NCBI GenBank assembly: GCA_035462005.1
Contig: DATHUT010000306.1
Location: 1 to 27,810 of the forward strand
Direction: 5' to 3'
Source: Gammaproteobacteria bacterium
Lineage (GTDB): Bacteria; Pseudomonadota; Gammaproteobacteria; DSM-19610
DNA length: 27,810 nucleotides
The translations under genes were made by a program, and so were the position numbers. Each line of letters begins with the position of its first letter. Position 1 is the first letter of the stretch. Under the pieces are notes generated by a model, which was given only the letters and a program-made list of their open reading frames with translations, was not told the DNA's origin and made no database searches. Positions 1,230-8,037 of the stretch are shown one piece after another.

Positions 1230-1255
1230 ACAATCGAACGATGGGGAGAATCAAG

Positions 1256-2296
1256 ATGGATGACAACAAACGCAAGGCGCTCGGCGCCGCCCTTGGCCAG
1301 ATCGAAAAGCAATTCGGCAAGGGTGCCGTGATGCGCATGGGCGACGTGGTCGCCCGCGATGTGGAAGTGGTGTCCAGTGGTTCCCTGGCGCTGGACGTGG
1401 CGCTCGGCGTGGGTGGTTATCCGCGCGGCCGCGTCATCGAGATCTATGGTCCGGAATCCTCCGGCAAGACCACCCTGACCCTGCAGGCCATCGCCGAGGT
1501 GCAGAAGCTCGGCGGCACCGCCGCCTTCGTGGACGCGGAACACGCCCTCGACCCCGGCTATGCCGAAAAGCTGGGTGTCAACGTGGACGATCTGCTGGTA
1601 TCCCAGCCCGACACCGGCGAGCAGGCCCTGGAGATCACCGACATGCTGGTGCGCTCCGGTGCCGTGGACATCGTGGTGGTGGACTCGGTGGCGGCCCTGA
1701 CGCCCAAGGCGGAGATCGAAGGGGAGATGGGTGATTCCCACATGGGTCTGCATGCCCGTCTCATGTCCCAGGCCCTGCGCAAGCTTACCGCCAACATCAA
1801 GCGCTCCAATACCATGGTGATCTTCATCAACCAGATCCGCATGAAGATCGGTGTCATGTTCGGCAGTCCCGAAACCACCACGGGCGGCAACGCCCTCAAG
1901 TTCTATGCCTCCGTGCGTCTCGATATCCGCCGCATCGGCGCCATCAAGAAGGGCGACGAAGTGGTGGGCAATGAGACCCGCGTCAAGGTGGTCAAGAACA
2001 AGGTGGCACCGCCCTTCCGCCAGGCCGAATTCGAGATCCTCTACGGTGAGGGCATCTCCCGTGAGGGTGAACTCATCGAACTGGGCGTGAAGCACGGCTT
2101 CATCGACAAGGCTGGCGCCTGGTACAGCTACCAGGGCGACCGCATCGGCCAGGGTAAGGAAAACGTGCGCCAGTTTCTCAAGGACAACCCGGACATCGCC
2201 AAGACCATCGATGGGCAGGTTCGCGCCGAATTGCTGGTGAAGCCGCGGTCTGCCCCGGCCGACAAGGAAGACCTGGCGGAACTGGAAGAGGCCTAG
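1256..2296 (+). CDS. recA: Recombinase RecA
   Basis: Unmistakable RecA sequence ([23 protein letters not shown], Walker [33 protein letters not shown]). GGAGA RBS at 1245-1249 favours the ATG at 1256 over 1241. Confidence 0.99.
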
Positions 2297-2309
2297 GCCC
2301 CGTCGGGGT

Positions 2310-2759
2310 ATGGACGCGGACCTCGAGTACAGTCCCGCGGACATCCGTGCCCGGGCCCTGAACCTGCTGGCACGGCGCGAGCACAGCCGCCTGGAGCTGG
2401 CACGCAAGCTGCGCCAGCGGGGCATGGCGGGCGCGGACCTGGAACAGGTGCTGGATGAGCTGGCGGCGGCCCGCCTGTTGAGTGACACCCGTTTCGCCGA
2501 AGAGTATGCCCGCAGCCGTGCCGGCCGCGGCTACGGACCCGTGCGCATCCGTGCCGAGCTGCGTGAGCGGGGTATCGATGACGCGGGCATCCAGACAGCC
2601 CTCGGGGAGCTGGACGAGGACTGGTGCCAGCAGGCCCGCGCGGCGCGGCAGCGGCGCTTTGGTGCGGAGCCCCCCGCTGACCTGAAGGAGCGGGCGCGCC
2701 AGAGCCGTTTTCTGCAACAGCGCGGCTTCAGTCCCGAGCAGATCCGCCAGGCCCTGTAG
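2310..2759 (+). CDS. recX: Regulatory protein RecX
   Basis: ALNLLARREHSRLEL, LLSDTRFAE, GYGPVRIRAELRERGI and RFLQQRGFS motifs; directly downstream of recA. Confidence 0.95.
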   Translation: MDADLEYSPADIRARALNLLARREHSRLELARKLRQRGMAGADLEQVLDELAAARLLSDTRFAEEYARSRAGRGYGPVRIRAELRERGIDDAGIQTALGELDEDWCQQARAARQRRFGAEPPADLKERARQSRFLQQRGFSPEQIRQAL

Positions 2760-2889
2760 ACCGGAAAATCCGCTCTCCTTACACGCAGCAGCGTGGTTCG
2801 AGGGGAAATCATCGGGTATACACCTGTTTATCTTCGTGCTCCCAATGGTAGGATTGGTCTTTGGCTGAACGAACCCGAACCTGACCATC

Positions 2890-5498
2890 ATGTCCACCAG
2901 CAAACAACTGCGGCAACAATTCCTGGATTTCTTCCGCGAGCGCGGCCACGAGGTGGTGCCCTCCAGCCCACTGGTGCCGGCGGACGATCCCACCCTGTTG
3001 TTCACCAACGCCGGCATGGTGCAGTTCAAGGACGTGTTCCTGGGCAAGGACCAGCGTGCCTATAGCCGCGCCGTCTCCAGCCAGCGCTGCGTGCGTGCCG
3101 GCGGCAAGCACAATGACCTGGAGAACGTCGGCTACACTGCCCGCCACCACACTTTCTTTGAAATGCTGGGTAATTTCAGCTTCGGCGACTATTTCAAGCG
3201 CGAGGCCATCCAGTACGCCTGGGAATTCCTCACCGTCACCTTGCAGCTACCGCCGGAAAAACTCTGGGTGACGGTGTTCGAGGAGGACGAGGAAGCAGCT
3301 GACATCTGGCTCAAGGAGATCGGGGTGGACCCGGCGCGTTTCAGCCGCATCGGCGCCAAGGACAATTTCTGGTCCATGGGCGATACCGGTCCCTGTGGCC
3401 CCTGCACCGAGATCTTCTACGATCACGGCCCGGACGTGGCCGGCGGCCCACCGGGCTCGCCCGAGGAAGACGGGGACCGCTACATCGAGATCTGGAACCT
3501 GGTGTTCATGCAATACGACCGTGACCGGGAGGGGAATCTCAACCCCTTGCCGCGACCCTCGGTGGATACCGGCATGGGCCTGGAGCGCCTGGCGGCCGTC
3601 ATGCAGGGCGTACACAGCAATTATGAAATCGACCTGTTCCAGCATCTCATCCAGGCCGCTGCCGCCCTGGCCGGTAGCGACGACCTGGAAGACAAATCCC
3701 TGCGTGTCATTGCCGATCACATCCGCGCCTGCGCCTTCCTGGTAGTGGACGGGGTCATGCCCTCCAACGAAGGTCGCGGTTATGTGTTGCGACGCATCAC
3801 CCGGCGCGCCATCCGCCACGGTCACAAGCTGGGCATCCAGGGCAGCTTCTTCCACAAGCTGGTGGAACCCCTGGTGGAGCAGATGGGTGAGGCCTACCCG
3901 GAACTGGTCAAGGCCCGCGAACAGGTGGAGCGGGTACTGCGCCAGGAAGAGGAGCGTTTTGCCGAGACCCTCGACAAGGGTATGCGCATCCTTGAGGAAA
4001 GCATTGCCGACCTGAATGGCAACCTGATCCCCGGTGAGACGGTATTCAAGCTCTACGATACCTACGGCTTCCCCCTCGACCTTACCGCGGACATCGCCCG
4101 GGAACGCAATCTCACTATCGACCTGCAGGGTTTCGAGGCCAGCATGGCGGCACAACGCGACCGTGCCCGGGCCGCCAGCCAGTTTGCCGCCGATTATGGC
4201 GCCGGGGTGGAACTGCAGGATTGCACCGAATTCACCGGTTATGGCCAGCTCACCGATACCAGCCGGGTGATTGGCCTCTACAAGGGCAGTCAGCCTGTGA
4301 CCCAGCTCGAGGCCGGTGAGCAGGGCATGGTGATCCTGGACCATACCGCTTTCTATGCGGAATCCGGTGGCCAGGTGGGTGACCAGGGCGTGCTGGTCAA
4401 CGGCAATGCCCGTTTCGAGGTGCGCGACACCCAGAAGCAGGGCAAGGCCTTCGCCCATCTGGGTATGTTGGGGGCGGGCAGTCTGCGGGTCGGCGACACG
4501 GTGCGTGGCGAAGTGGATGCCGCGCGCCGTCGAGCCACCATGCTCAATCATTCCGCCACTCACCTGCTGCATGCCGCTTTGCGCCAGGTGCTGGGTGAGC
4601 ATGTGCAGCAGAAGGGGTCGCTGGTGAACCCCGAGCGACTGCGCTTCGACTTTGCCCACTTCGAGCCGGTGAGCAGCGGGCAGATCGAAACCCTGGAACG
4701 TATCGTCAACGACCAGATCCGCAGCAATGCTGCCGTGGAAACCCGCCTCATGCCCATTGCCCAGGCCATGGAGTCGGGTGCCGTGGCCCTGTTCGGCGAG
4801 AAATACGGAGACGAAGTGCGGGTGCTGGCCATCGGTGATTTCTCCGTGGAACTCTGTGGCGGAACCCATGTGGAGCGGGCCGGCGATATCGGCCTGTTCA
4901 AGATCGTCAACGAGACCGGTATCGCTTCCGGTGTGCGCCGCATCGAGGCCGTGACCGGCGATGGGGCGCTGGCCTACATCGGTGAGACGGAGAAGAACCT
5001 GCAGCGTATCGCCCAGCTGGTGAAGGGTGGGCGCGAGGACGTCGAGACCCGCGTCGTCCAGTTGATGGATAAGACCCGCAAGCTGGAAAGGAACTGGAAC
5101 AGCTCAAATCAAAGCTGGCCAGCAGTCAGGGTTCCGATCTGGCAGCCCAGGTGGTGGAAGTGGCAGGCATCCAGGTGCTGGCCGCCCGCCTGGACGGGGT
5201 CGATGCCAAGGCCTTGCGCGAGACCGTGGACCAACTCAAGCAGAAACTGGGTTCCGCCGTGGTGCTACTGGCCGTGGTGGAGGAGGGCAAGGTGTCCCTG
5301 GCCGCCGGGGTCACCAAGGACCAGACCGGGCGTATCAAGGCCGGCGAGCTGGTCAATGCCGTGGCCCAACAGGTGGGCGGCAAGGGCGGCGGGCGGCCCG
5401 ACATGGCCATGGCCGGTGGCAGCCAGCCGGAACACCTCGACGCGGCCCTGGCCTCGGTGGCGGACTGGGTGCGCGCCCGCGTCACCGCCACGGCGTAG
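2890..5498 (+). CDS. alaS: Alanine--tRNA ligase, interrupted by a 1-nt deletion at ~5087-5089 (reconstructed join 2890..5088,5088..5498, about 869 aa)
   Basis: [34 protein letters not shown], editing motifs NHSATHLLH and ELCGGTH, and GVRRIEA are in frame up to KLE(5088). The C-Ala domain ([11 protein letters not shown]...[15 protein letters not shown], stop 5496-5498) continues in the -1 frame. Confidence 0.97.
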
Positions 5499-5617
5499 GC
5501 CACGGTTTAATCCCGCGCGGTTTTGTAGTTTAATCTGCGCCTTTGTTTGCGCGGCCTGCCGCGCAGGGTTTCCCAGGCAGTTCTCACTCCCGGCCACGCC
5601 CGGGCGAATGGATCATC

Positions 5618-6838
5618 ATGGCGCTGATTGTTCAGAAGTACGGTGGCACCTCCGTCGGCACGGTGGAGCGCATTGAGGCGGTGGCGGAAAAGGTCATCAA
5701 CTACCGCAATGGCGGAAACGAGGTGGTGGTCGTGGTGTCCGCCATGAGTGGCGAGACCAACCGGCTGGTGGACCTGGCCAAGGCCATCAGCCCGCGCCCC
5801 GCGCCCCGGGAGCTGGATGTGTTGCTGGCCACCGGCGAGCAGACCACCATTGCCCTGTTGAGCATGGCCCTGGAGAAGCGTGGCTGTGCGGCCCGCTCCT
5901 ACACCGGCGGCCAGGTGCATATCCGTACCGATAGCACCCATAACAAGGCCCGCATCCAGGATATTGATGGCACGGCCATCCGCCGCGATCTGCTCGCCGG
6001 ACGGGTGGTGGTGGTGGCGGGTTTCCAGGGCGTGGACGAGCAAGGCAACATCACCACCCTGGGGCGCGGTGGGTCCGATACCACCGCCGTGGCCCTGGCG
6101 GCGGCCCTCAAGGCCGACGAATGCCAGATATTTACCGACGTGGACGGAGTCTATACCACCGATCCACGGGTGGTGCCCGATGCACGCCGACTGGAGCGCA
6201 TCACCTTCGAGGAAATGCTGGAGATGGCCAGCCTGGGCTCCAAGGTGCTGCAGATCCGTTCGGTGGAATTCGCCGGCAAATACAATGTACCCCTGCGTGT
6301 CCTGTCCAGCTTCGAGGAAGGGCCGGGCACGCTGATCACCTATGAGGAAGAGGGAATGGAACAGGCCTTGATCTCCGGCATCGCCTTCAACCGTGACGAG
6401 GCGAAGCTCACCGTGCTGGGCGTGCCCGATCAGCCCGGCATCGCCCACAAGCTGCTGGGCCCCATAGCCGATGCCAATATCGAAGTGGACATGATCGTGC
6501 AGAACGTGAGCCCCGACCAGACGGCCACGGACTTCACCTTCACGGTCCATCGCAACGAGTACGATCGAGCGCTGGAAATTCTCGGCCAGGTGGCACGGGA
6601 ACTGGGTGCCCGCGAAGTGAGTGGGGATAACAAGATCGTCAAGATCTCCATCGTCGGGGTCGGCATGCGCTCCCATGCGGGCATTGCTGCGACCATGTTC
6701 GAGACGCTGGCCCGGGAAGGGATCAATATCCGCATGATTTCCACCTCGGAGATCAAGATTTCCGTCGTGGTGGACGAAAAGTATCTGGAATTGGGCGTGC
6801 GCGCCCTGCATGAGGCCTTTGATCTGGCGCGGGCCTGA
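5618..6838 (+). CDS. lysC: Aspartate kinase (two ACT domains)
   Basis: [46 protein letters not shown] and the C-terminal ACT repeat ([12 protein letters not shown]). An internal GAGGGAATG at MEQALISG would fit an alpha/beta-type internal start. Conserved alaS-lysC-csrA order. Confidence 0.96.
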
Positions 6839-7002
6839 TTTTCCCGAATCCCGGGAAATGGCAATTAAAATAAAAAGTTAAAATGTGAGCTATAGTTTCT
6901 GTCAGCGTGGCCGACACAGGGGGTGTCCGGTACGCGCCTGGTTCGTACCGATCGCGTAGTACGCGGGATTTGGTTTGCGAAAGCATGTAAGGAGACGTGG
7001 GA

Positions 7003-7203
7003 ATGTTGATACTGACACGCAGGGTGGGTGAAACCCTCATGATCGGTGATGAAGTCACGGTGACAGTTCTGGGTGTCAAGGGCAACCAGGTCCGCATTGG
7101 TGTGAACGCCCCCAAGGATGTTTCGGTCCATAGGGAAGAGATCTACGAGCGCATCAAGCGCGAACAGGACGAGGACAGTTCGCAGGAAGTTGCCGGAAAC
7201 TGA
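7003..7203 (+). CDS. csrA: Carbon storage regulator CsrA/RsmA
   Basis: [51 protein letters not shown]; AAGGAG RBS at 6989-6994. Confidence 0.99.
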
Positions 7204-7223
7204 CCAGGCCAATATATTCAGCC

Positions 7224-7325: not shown

Positions 7326-7415
7326 GGAGAGATGGCCGAGAGGCTGAAGGCGCACCCCTGCTAAGGGTGTATAGGGGAAACTCTATCGAGGGTTCGAATC
7401 CCTCTCTCTCCGCCA
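7326..7415 (+). tRNA. tRNA-Ser (anticodon GCT), long variable arm, encoded CCA
   Basis: GGAGAGA acceptor stem; anticodon arm CACCC-CTGCTAA-GGGTG; variable arm ATAGGG-GAAA-CTCTAT; T arm GAGGG-TTCGAAT-CCCTC; ends TCTCTCCGCCA. Same position as E. coli serV after csrA. Confidence 0.98.
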
Positions 7416-7677
7416 TCCATATAAAAGCCCCGCAAGGGGCTTTTTTTATGGATGGCGGAGAGAGAGCCCGGTGAGAACCCTTCGGTTCGACGGAGCGGCC
7501 GTAGGCCGCGGAGAACGTCGCCGCTTGCGGCGACGGCCCCGAAGGGGTGAGGCCCGCCAGGGCCGAATAATCCCGTTCTGTCCGCAACCACCCAGCCTGC
7601 TGTTGCAGGGCTTTTTTTATGGATGGCGGAGAGAGAGCCCGGTGAGAACCCTTCGGTTCGACGGAGCGACCGTAGGC
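7398..7677. repeat. tRNA-Ser-linked tandem repeat: one full ~171 bp unit plus a truncated second unit
   Basis: 7437-7506 and 7608-7677 are a 70 bp direct repeat with one mismatch (offset 171). 7436-7466 is an inverted copy of 7402-7431 (tRNA 3' end plus trailer). 7570-7590 is a degenerate copy of the tRNA 3' end (ATCCCGTTCTGTCCGCAACCA). Confidence 0.9.
7423..7447 (+). terminator. Intrinsic (bidirectional-type) terminator after tRNA-Ser
   Basis: AAAA-GCCCC-GCAA-GGGGC-TTTTTTT. Confidence 0.85.
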
Positions 7678-7688
7678 ACTATCCACCC

Positions 7689-7717
7689 TTGCACTTTCCT
7701 CCTGGATTCCGGATAAT
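7689..7717 (+). promoter_or_regulatory. sigma70 promoter of tRNA-Arg with GC-rich discriminator
   Basis: TTGCAC (7689-7694), 17 bp, GATAAT (7712-7717), followed by GCCCCGC; 13 bp upstream of the tRNA. Confidence 0.7.
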
Positions 7718-7730
7718 GCCCCGCTCTTAC

Positions 7731-7807
7731 GCGCCCGTAGCTCAGCTGGATAGAGTACTCGGCTACGAACCGAGCGGTCGGGAGTTCGAATCTCTCCGGG
7801 CGCGCCA
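7731..7807 (+). tRNA. tRNA-Arg (anticodon ACG), encoded CCA
   Basis: GCGCCCG/CGGGCGC acceptor stem; D arm GCTC-AGCTGGATA-GAGT; anticodon arm CTCGG-CTACGAA-CCGAG; T arm GGGAG-TTCGAAT-CTCTC; 77 nt. Confidence 0.98.
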
Positions 7808-8037
7808 TACAAGCGAAGCCGCCACCCCTACAGGGTGGCTTTTTCGTTTCAGCGAAGTGCCTTCGGAGAGGTTCGAACTCCCGACGTTTCAATCGGGTCG
7901 AGTTTGACCAGCGGCGCAGCCGCGCAGAACGGCCGCAGGCCGGCCCGCAGGGCGAGGGGCACAGCCCCGAGTCATCTCTCCGGGCGCGCCATACAAGCGA
8001 AGCAGCCACCCCTACAGGGTGGCTTTTTCGTTTCAGC
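7790..8037. repeat. tRNA-Arg-linked repeat element bounded by 64 bp direct repeats
   Basis: 7790-7853 and 7974-8037 are identical except 7820/8004 (offset 184). Each contains the last 18 nt of tRNA-Arg plus a terminator. 7864-7885 is a 21/22 inverted match to tRNA bases 7777-7798. Confidence 0.92.
7821..7844 (+). terminator. Intrinsic terminator after tRNA-Arg (second copy at 8005-8028)
   Basis: GCCACCC-CTACA-GGGTGGC-TTTTT. Confidence 0.8.

Follow-up and report, generated by a model that had tools for sequence, protein, structure and literature searches.

Here we describe two repeat elements that lie behind the neighbouring tRNA-Ser(GCU) and tRNA-Arg(ACG) genes of an uncultured soil gammaproteobacterium, in a stretch of 27,810 nucleotides (nt) that we call the window (assembly GCA_035462005.1, contig DATHUT010000306.1, positions 1 to 27,810 of the forward strand). 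Both are very probably diverged members of the RtT family (RF00391; in Escherichia coli, rttR behind tyrT/tyrV), a structured module of tRNA-operon trailers and spacers, and we put the probability of this reading at roughly 0.85. This is a known kind of element; the new part is modest and consists of members below the threshold whose hosts are the Ser(GCU), Arg(ACG), and Gln(UUG) tRNAs of an uncultured soil lineage, and of a clear view that the arms always fit the host tRNA. An initial annotation, made from the letters of this DNA, had proposed a family of repeats with a shared structured core and arms matched to each host tRNA—either a mobile element or a tRNA-derived structured RNA. The structured RNA is the better half of that proposal, and the mobile half is unsupported.

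Membership in the RtT family

At the Rfam gathering thresholds the two tRNAs are the sole matches in the window. The cut-off for RF00391 is 45 bits, and the window units were found with E-value reporting instead: the model aligns end to end (positions 1-130) to 7450-7587 behind tRNA-Ser (32.3 bits, E about 2e-4) and, again end to end (positions 1-130), to 7850-7991 behind tRNA-Arg (31.5 bits, E about 3e-4). In the whole 2.3-Mb assembly no RF00391 match scores higher than these two; the third, at 19.8 bits, lies behind tRNA-Gln(UUG). The Ser unit holds every conserved RtT core motif, and the Arg unit has GAGTTTGAC, GAAC, GCCC-GCA-GGGC, GAG, and CGAGTCATC.

The RtT RNA, or rttR, has been known since 1991 as the 178-bp repeats of the E. 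coli tyrT-tyrV operon (Bosl & Kersten 1991, as related in PMC4986893 and PMC7542023). The tyrT-tyrV-rttR units of strain K-12 consist of ATCCTTCCCCCACCACCA (the tRNA-Tyr 3' end), a spacer, GGGGAAGGATGAGAAGCTTCGA (antisense to the T-arm), CCAAGGTTCGAC, hairpins, and CTGAGTA, after which ATCC comes again. The window has the same order—tRNA 3' end, spacer, antisense T-arm, GGTTCGAC, hairpins, CGARTAAT, and tRNA 3' end from the T-loop—together with the same strand as the tRNA and the same tandem period of about 170-185 bp (171 and 184 in the window). The linkers common to the window units and RtT are GAGAACC...GGUUCGAC, GAAC, CCC-GNA-GGG, YGAG, and CGARUAAUCC, the GAUGAGAACC part being absent from the Arg unit. 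The full-length alignment, the common motifs, and the identical anatomy in E. coli therefore show that the likeness to E. coli tyrT/rtT noted in the initial annotation is homology, more than analogy. That annotation had also allowed for a core already fully described by an existing Rfam family of known function; this is so in part, since RF00391 describes the element, for which a function is only proposed.

A third, shortened copy lies outside the window at contig C136:6385-6519 (L081:186-320). Its order is tRNA-Gln(UUG), 10 nt, GCCCC-GCA-GGGGC, GAG, GGC-GCGA-GCCC, GAGTA, and an exact 21-nt repeat of the tRNA 3' end. This copy also came up in two independent ways: in a search for 3'-end copies behind each of the 25 tRNAs, and with a structural pattern that describes the two 3' hairpins. 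A related genome (G001) carries a full-length unit at the Gln site where the present genome has an internally deleted version. BLAST of the Ser and Arg units against their own genome returned no matches besides themselves; BLAST, the structural pattern, and RF00391 thus give a total of three copies in the 2.3-Mb assembly, all of them tRNA-linked.

Several points weigh against the assignment to RtT. Both units score below the Rfam gathering threshold (32 against 45 bits), and their hosts in this genome are Ser(GCU), Arg(ACG), and Gln(UUG), not Tyr as in E. coli. In the Arg unit, a complete antisense T-arm stands where the family has its GAUGAGAACC motif. An intrinsic terminator stands in the spacer between each tRNA, or tRNA-end copy, and the unit body; expression would need read-through, unlike at E. 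coli tyrT. The window arrays are also short, at about 1.4 units, against 3.14 in E. coli. A discrete RNA in this organism is a prediction, and a cellular role for RtT, even in E. coli, is no more than proposed. Finally, no shown mechanism accounts for how the arms come to match a new host tRNA.

As to the scores, the alignment places the shortfall of the window units largely in the Tyr-specific arms of the model; because those arms are Tyr-like, Tyr-linked units score highest against Rfam, and Ser, Arg, and Pro units lowest. The scores form a continuum: the G001 orthologue of the Ser unit reaches 41.4 bits, and within the same bacterial family, units linked to Tyr and Gln tRNAs reach 45-66 bits.

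A very improbable alternative to RtT membership is that the elements are REP/BIME-type extragenic palindromes gathered by chance behind tRNA terminators. The cassette is built of GC-rich hairpins, this genome has a REP-like family, and some enterobacterial BIME clusters resemble rtT (survey, PMC2965389). However, the genome's REP family (GTAGGAGCGGCC...GCGAAT) differs in sequence from the cassette; in a structural pattern search, the three tRNA-linked sites alone carry the two-hairpin module with clean GC stems; and the orientation and T-loop junction of the units are fixed and their arms host-specific. The REP-like family itself, outside the window, has the form GTAGGAGCGGCC-loop-GGCCGCGAAT, often in inverted pairs (contigs C241:203, C310:254, C36, C62, C170, and C372).

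Anatomy, folding and covariation

The RtT unit has a four-part anatomy in which the two arms pair as an outer stem, P1, that clamps a cassette. A unit comprises an antisense copy of the host's T-arm/acceptor 3' strand; a sense T-arm 5' half ending GGTTCGA; three or four GC-rich hairpins with the linkers GAAC, CCC-GNA-GGG, YGAG, and CGARTAAT; and the remainder of the tRNA 3' end, which runs from the T-loop AT to CCA. Table 1 lists these parts for the window.

For the Ser element, the repeat finder reports a direct repeat in which 7437-7506 recurs at 7608-7677 (70 nt, 99%, period 171), and an inverted repeat between 7437-7466 and 7402-7431 (30 nt, 90% complementary, 5-nt gap), the latter segment being the tRNA-Ser 3' end and the left half of the terminator. 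The unit starts 35 nt past tRNA-Ser, on the plus strand like the tRNA, and the 171-bp array holds about 1.4 copies, ending with a truncated unit. Its core (7485-7569) opens with GTTCGA and stops just 5' of ATCCC (7570); where the Ser 3' end comes a second time in sense orientation (7570-7587), a count from the sequence gives 14 of 18 matching positions.

The Arg element is built alike. Positions 7790-7853 recur at 7974-8037 (repeat finder; 64 nt, 98% identical, period 184), and this repeat takes in the last 18 nt of tRNA-Arg, from the T-loop ATCTC, plus the intrinsic terminator (46 nt beyond the tRNA end). The inverted repeat sets 7864-7885 against the tRNA T-arm at 7777-7798 (22 nt, 95% complementary, 21/22). 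The unit begins 43 nt past tRNA-Arg, also on the plus strand, its 184-bp array holding about 1.35 copies and ending at 8037; the core (7902-7973) opens with GTTTGA and stops just 5' of ATCTC (7974).

Much of what the initial annotation had claimed of the two elements thus stands. The same architecture behind both tRNAs was reproduced by the repeat finder, with the tRNAs placed by ARAGORN and Rfam; the arms are host-specific, with inverted and direct repeats that match each own tRNA, as they do in relatives; and the proposed core limits agree with the motifs at either end. The two cores do share a scaffold of hairpin, GAAC, hairpin, CCC-GNA-GGG, YGAG, hairpin, and GARTM, and the description of the unit as a tRNA 3' part with a cassette in its T-loop holds. 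The claim that the tRNA 3' end is repeated after the core is exact for Arg and only approximate for Ser.

Table 1. Positions of the RtT units, their parts, and their host tRNAs in the window
Feature	Position	Strand	Basis or remark
tRNA-Ser(GCU)	7326-7415	+	ARAGORN; Rfam tRNA 57.8 bits; host of first element
Long hairpin	7402-7466	+	tRNA-Ser 3' end/trailer paired with antisense arm; intrinsic terminator at tip
First Ser terminator	7427-7447	+	GCCCC 7427-7431, loop GCAA, GGGGC 7436-7440, T-run 7441-7447; read from sequence
Ser RtT unit	7450-7590	+	RF00391 positions 1-130 on 7450-7587; fold; sequence
Ser antisense arm, TGGCGGAGAGAGAG	7453-7466	+	
Ser P2, GAACC/GGTTC	7475-7488	+	
Ser hairpins	7495-7509, 7516-7535, 7537-7547 (CCCC-GAA-GGGG), 7551-7564	+	
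Ser GAATA	7565-7569	+	
Ser degenerate sense copy of tRNA 3' end	7570-7590	+	
Second terminator-like hairpin and T-run, closing first Ser unit	7596-7618 (hairpin 7596-7609)	+	Terminator scan
Truncated second Ser unit	7608-7677	+	T-run, antisense arm, P2, first half of hairpin 1; direct repeat
Putative tRNA-Arg promoter	7689-7717	+	TTGCAC, 17 nt, GATAAT; inferred by reading sequence
tRNA-Arg(ACG)	7731-7807	+	ARAGORN; Rfam tRNA 63.3 bits; host of second element
First 64-nt repeat copy	7790-7853	+	tRNA-Arg end and terminator 7821-7839; terminator scan
Arg RtT unit	7850-7991	+	RF00391 positions 1-130; inverted repeat; fold
Arg antisense copy of whole T-arm	7864-7885	+	
Arg sense T-arm 5' half, TCGGGTCGAGTTTGA	7893-7907	+	
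Arg hairpins	7911-7923, 7930-7942, 7943-7953 (GCCC-GCA-GGGC), 7956-7968	+	
Arg GAGTC	7969-7973	+	
Arg exact sense copy of tRNA 3' end	7974-7991	+	18/18
Second 64-nt repeat copy	7974-8037	+	tRNA-Arg 3' end and terminator 8004-8024; terminator scan

The Ser unit folds at -75.2 kcal/mol (z -3.6; reverse complement z -2.6) and the Arg unit at -69.6 kcal/mol (z -3.0; reverse complement z -2.2), the minimum-free-energy folds of both consisting of an outer arm-arm stem around four hairpins. Covariation was read from a MAFFT alignment of 31 full units from seven tRNA species, E. coli included. Over P1, P2, P3, and the P4 base, pairing holds in 94% of cells, compared with 81% when columns are shuffled (none of 500 shuffles reach the observed value) and 31-51% with slid partners. 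Both sides have changed in 14 of 26 pairs (P1 6/11, P3 7/8, P4 base 1/2); P2 (GAACC/GGTTC) is invariant. The outer stem and the first hairpin covary strongly, P1 doing so because its 3' strand is the host tRNA end. The covarying stems that the initial annotation had foreseen are therefore found in P1, P3, and the P4 base, the 14/26 being a count over P1, P2, P3, and the P4 base together; for hairpins 2-4, covariation was judged by eye only. The 31-unit alignment worked for P1-P3, and at hairpins 2 and 4, whose stem sequence differs between members, it is too poor for counting; a core-only MAFFT alignment misaligned the unequal-length hairpins and gave 3 consensus pairs only. The architecture as such exceeds chance, given the folds and the same plan in dozens of loci of related genomes.

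Two details bear on how the structure is read. G-U pairs are tolerated in P1 (for example, 8 G-U at one A-U position), which on the opposite strand would be A-C mismatches; this tolerance and the better folding of the sense strand both point to an RNA of the same strand as the tRNA. In CCC-GNA-GGG, all four middle loop bases are seen (GAA, GCA, GGA, GTA) with no matching change in the upstream CCCTTCGG, and we therefore read this segment as a local hairpin, not as the long-range pairing of the Rfam consensus. We also considered P1 as an acceptor/T-stem minihelix with a free NCCA tail (an RNase P substrate) and set this aside as not general; pairing of the antisense arm can extend across CCA in Gln and Ser units, and Tyr units keep 5-8 nt free.

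Distribution among relatives and mode of spread

RF00391 matches occur in 24 of 45 genomes of the same bacterial family (E <= 0.01), 16 of them over the cut-off; among 151 genomes sampled across the class, one for each family, 23 have matches (E <= 1e-4), with 7 over the cut-off. Host tRNAs and arms were read in about 45 loci, where the hosts are Tyr(GUA), Gln(CUG), Gln(UUG), Ser(GCU, GGA, CGA), Arg(ACG), and Pro(UGG). As the initial annotation had expected, the matches lie next to different tRNAs and carry the arms of their own tRNA: all units share the orientation of the tRNA, and every unit read closes with the 3' end of its own host, taken from the T-loop onward, and has a 5' arm antisense to that host. 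A crude antisense-arm score separates host from non-host weakly (10.4 against 8.0 of 14), partly owing to rough arm extraction, and the P1 pair counts are used in its place. Arms tailored to the tRNA are general for the RtT family.

Tandem arrays of at least two units occur in five relatives (G003, G008, G013, G027, and G054). The Tyr units of relatives sit within a tRNA-Tyr/Gly/Thr cluster, and are therefore very likely co-transcribed with it. There are also orphan units, with Gln- or Ser-type arms and no tRNA gene within 150 nt upstream, at G001:C11:4313-4445 (L124) and at G019:C6:3925-4071 and C14:368671-368817 (L130, L131), the G019 copies being identical and on two contigs. The E. coli tyrT-tyrV spacer (L099:1864-1994, minus strand) is a second RtT subtype, the 3' half of which (GGTGAGGAGCGAAGCGACGAATAATCC) is nearly identical to the Ser-linked units of two relatives (G016, G017); it follows that no fewer than two subtypes of the cassette are old and common to distant Gammaproteobacteria.

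That RtT associates with non-Tyr tRNAs was already known (PMC4986893), and RtT copies are multiple and variable between strains of Pasteurellaceae and Enterobacterales (PMC4147364, PMC7542023). Those homologues resemble ours in their non-Tyr hosts and variable copy number; the papers, in contrast, give Rfam matches without an analysis of host-matched arms, and the present window belongs to an uncultured soil gammaproteobacterium. In the open literature searched, we found no analysis of host-fitted RtT arms.

How do the units come to stand behind so many tRNAs? Mean core identity is 0.73 between units on the same tRNA in different genomes (n=119) and 0.61 between units on different tRNAs of the same genome (n=7), with a background of 0.55. 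Cores thus group by tRNA type and not by genome, from which it follows that the modules are mostly inherited with the tRNA locus. No clean empty sites were seen in the Ser-Arg spacers of relatives, against the expectation of the initial annotation; many of the seemingly empty spacers hold TGGCG-like remnants past the terminator, or incomplete units that break off at GGTTCGAC or behind hairpin 2. A member of the same genus (G004) is without exactly one 171-bp Ser period, and in a contig from a soil DNA run (X2) position 7500 is followed, after 3 other letters, by 7674, again one Ser period fewer. Such whole-period losses are as predicted by unequal crossover between direct repeats.

One relative (G041; C209:40204-40515, C128:1-129; L132, L143, L144) has tandem tRNA-Ser(CGA) copies whose T-loop is split by the cassette (GGTTCGA, cassette, ATCCCAC), and the array is followed by one intact tRNA-Ser(CGA). 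These copies look like the chimeras expected of crossover at the common GGTTCGA. An intron-like reading, in which the cassette-bearing tRNA-Ser(CGA) would be the sole gene, was ruled out by the intact copy after the array. A further case is G052:C437:262-405 (L125), a partial tRNA-Arg(ACG), from the anticodon stem onward, with a cassette in its T-loop and no tRNA 5' part upstream.

The pattern agrees with ancient tRNA-operon modules that are passed on vertically and remodelled by unequal crossover, and not with a mobile element that is still active. Arrays would grow and shrink by unequal homologous crossover because each unit repeats the tRNA 3' end, and in the window the terminator too. The sense arm stays tRNA-like because it is a direct repeat of the tRNA; the antisense arm may track the tRNA through selection on P1 pairing or, in Arg/Pro-type units, through a fairly recent inverted copy of the T-arm.

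The initial annotation had favoured a non-autonomous miniature element that inserts in tRNA T-loops, copies host tRNA both ways, and is moved in trans by an integrase, HUH, or reverse transcriptase enzyme. We consider this quite unlikely, even though a single cassette with one T-loop junction is found on at least 8 tRNA species, the distribution among relatives is patchy (24/45 genomes), tRNA-less orphan units and tRNA copies with the cassette in the T-loop occur, and the 21/22 inverted T-arm copy in the Arg unit looks templated. Against these stand the ragged antisense-arm remnants and whole-period differences in place of any clean empty site, the clustering of cores by tRNA type across genera, the three exclusively tRNA-linked copies in the genome, the intact tRNA after the G041 chimeras (which unequal crossover predicts), and the window itself—no recombinase, reverse transcriptase, or HUH gene is among its genes, in agreement with the initial annotation that no enzyme for the element is encoded there.

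A bolder version would make RtT a self-retargeting, non-autonomous, T-loop-specific class of mobile elements, both arms being rebuilt at a new tRNA by templated inverted and direct copying; this we regard as unlikely. The copying might occur when the quasi-palindromic GGTTCGAACC seeds a switch of strand or template, or by an RNA-level step, and the inverted T-arm copy of the Arg unit and the 'long arm' architecture of Arg/Pro units would then be recent retargeting events.

The direct repeats could also be read as tyrosine-integrase scars, that is, attL/attR duplications of the tRNA 3' end left after deletion of an island. The T-loop is reportedly a classic sublocation of integrase crossover; the direct repeat begins there, as attL/attR duplications do, and an integrase-like open reading frame (ORF) abuts tRNA-Arg in two relatives (G013, G015). 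This explanation is nonetheless highly improbable. What lies between the repeats is a conserved, covarying RtT cassette with an antisense arm, common to unrelated tRNAs and E. coli; the units are arranged in tandem; the cassette interrupts the T-loop, in which an att core would require unbroken identity; and the Arg repeat takes in the 46-nt terminator trailer. Between the Arg repeats there are 120 bp of conserved cassette alone, and the window holds neither integrase nor cargo.

Neighbourhood, expression and significance

The window is a housekeeping cluster in the order recA, alaS (2890-5676), aspartokinase (5543-6838), csrA (6997-7203), tRNA-Ser(GCU), and tRNA-Arg(ACG), spanning 1241-7204 up to csrA, an order that mirrors the E. 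coli alaS-csrA-serV-argV cluster. Further genes include a CbiX-like gene, an M48 peptidase gene, and others. A consensus promoter scan gave no call at 7689-7717, the site of the putative tRNA-Arg promoter; a CTTGAG...GGATAAT counterpart is conserved upstream of tRNA-Arg in relatives. In G013 (L057) and G015 (L065), a reverse-strand ORF with a tyrosine-recombinase-like HDLKHT motif abuts the 3' side of tRNA-Arg(ACG) and occupies the spot where the window has the Arg RtT unit, which suggests an island integrated at tRNA-Arg(ACG) in those genomes.

An RtT unit would be transcribed with its tRNA or by terminator read-through, and would then be cut out as an RNA of ~130-170 nt, its 3' end being formed in the manner of a tRNA's. 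Release by tRNA-processing nucleases seems probable because the 3' end of the unit is that of a tRNA. The antisense arm would have two mutually exclusive partners, either the genuine tRNA end upstream or the downstream copy in P1; at the Ser locus, pairing with the upstream tRNA end would extend the terminator to a 30-bp hairpin. The choice of partner might link formation of the module with tRNA 3' maturation or with termination. In a soil RNA library, contigs span 7445-7637 and 7824-8003 at a depth of 4-5, about that of the csrA flank; as DNA carry-over may account for them, they are weak evidence of transcription.

A partial parallel is the 3'ETS-leuZ of E. coli, said to be a short, unstructured sponge from a tRNA operon spacer. 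It too is a non-tRNA RNA freed from a tRNA precursor by the tRNA-processing machinery (for the window units such release is predicted); in contrast to RtT, it is without tRNA-end copies or repeats, and has no homology to the window units. Closer evidence comes from RtT itself: in Actinobacillus, homologues adjoining Asn and Lys tRNAs were detected by northern blot (PMC4986893), and an effect of RtT on amino-acid starvation or the stringent response has been proposed for E. coli (bioRxiv 10.1101/2024.07.17.603846, PMC4986893, PMC7542023).

Taken alone, the window shows nothing out of the ordinary: the family is known, and the tRNA cluster that carries it is a housekeeping one. Since the Rfam cut-off and the Tyr-flavoured model miss the members on Ser, Arg, and Gln tRNAs, routine annotation shows fewer members of the family than there are. 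For E. coli, RtT has stood since 1991 as an unexplained by-product of the tRNA-Tyr transcripts; its spread over many tRNAs argues against an E. coli oddity, and the host-fitted arms and covarying stems behind Ser, Arg, Gln, Tyr, and Pro tRNAs argue for a conserved RNA-level role tied to tRNA 3' ends.

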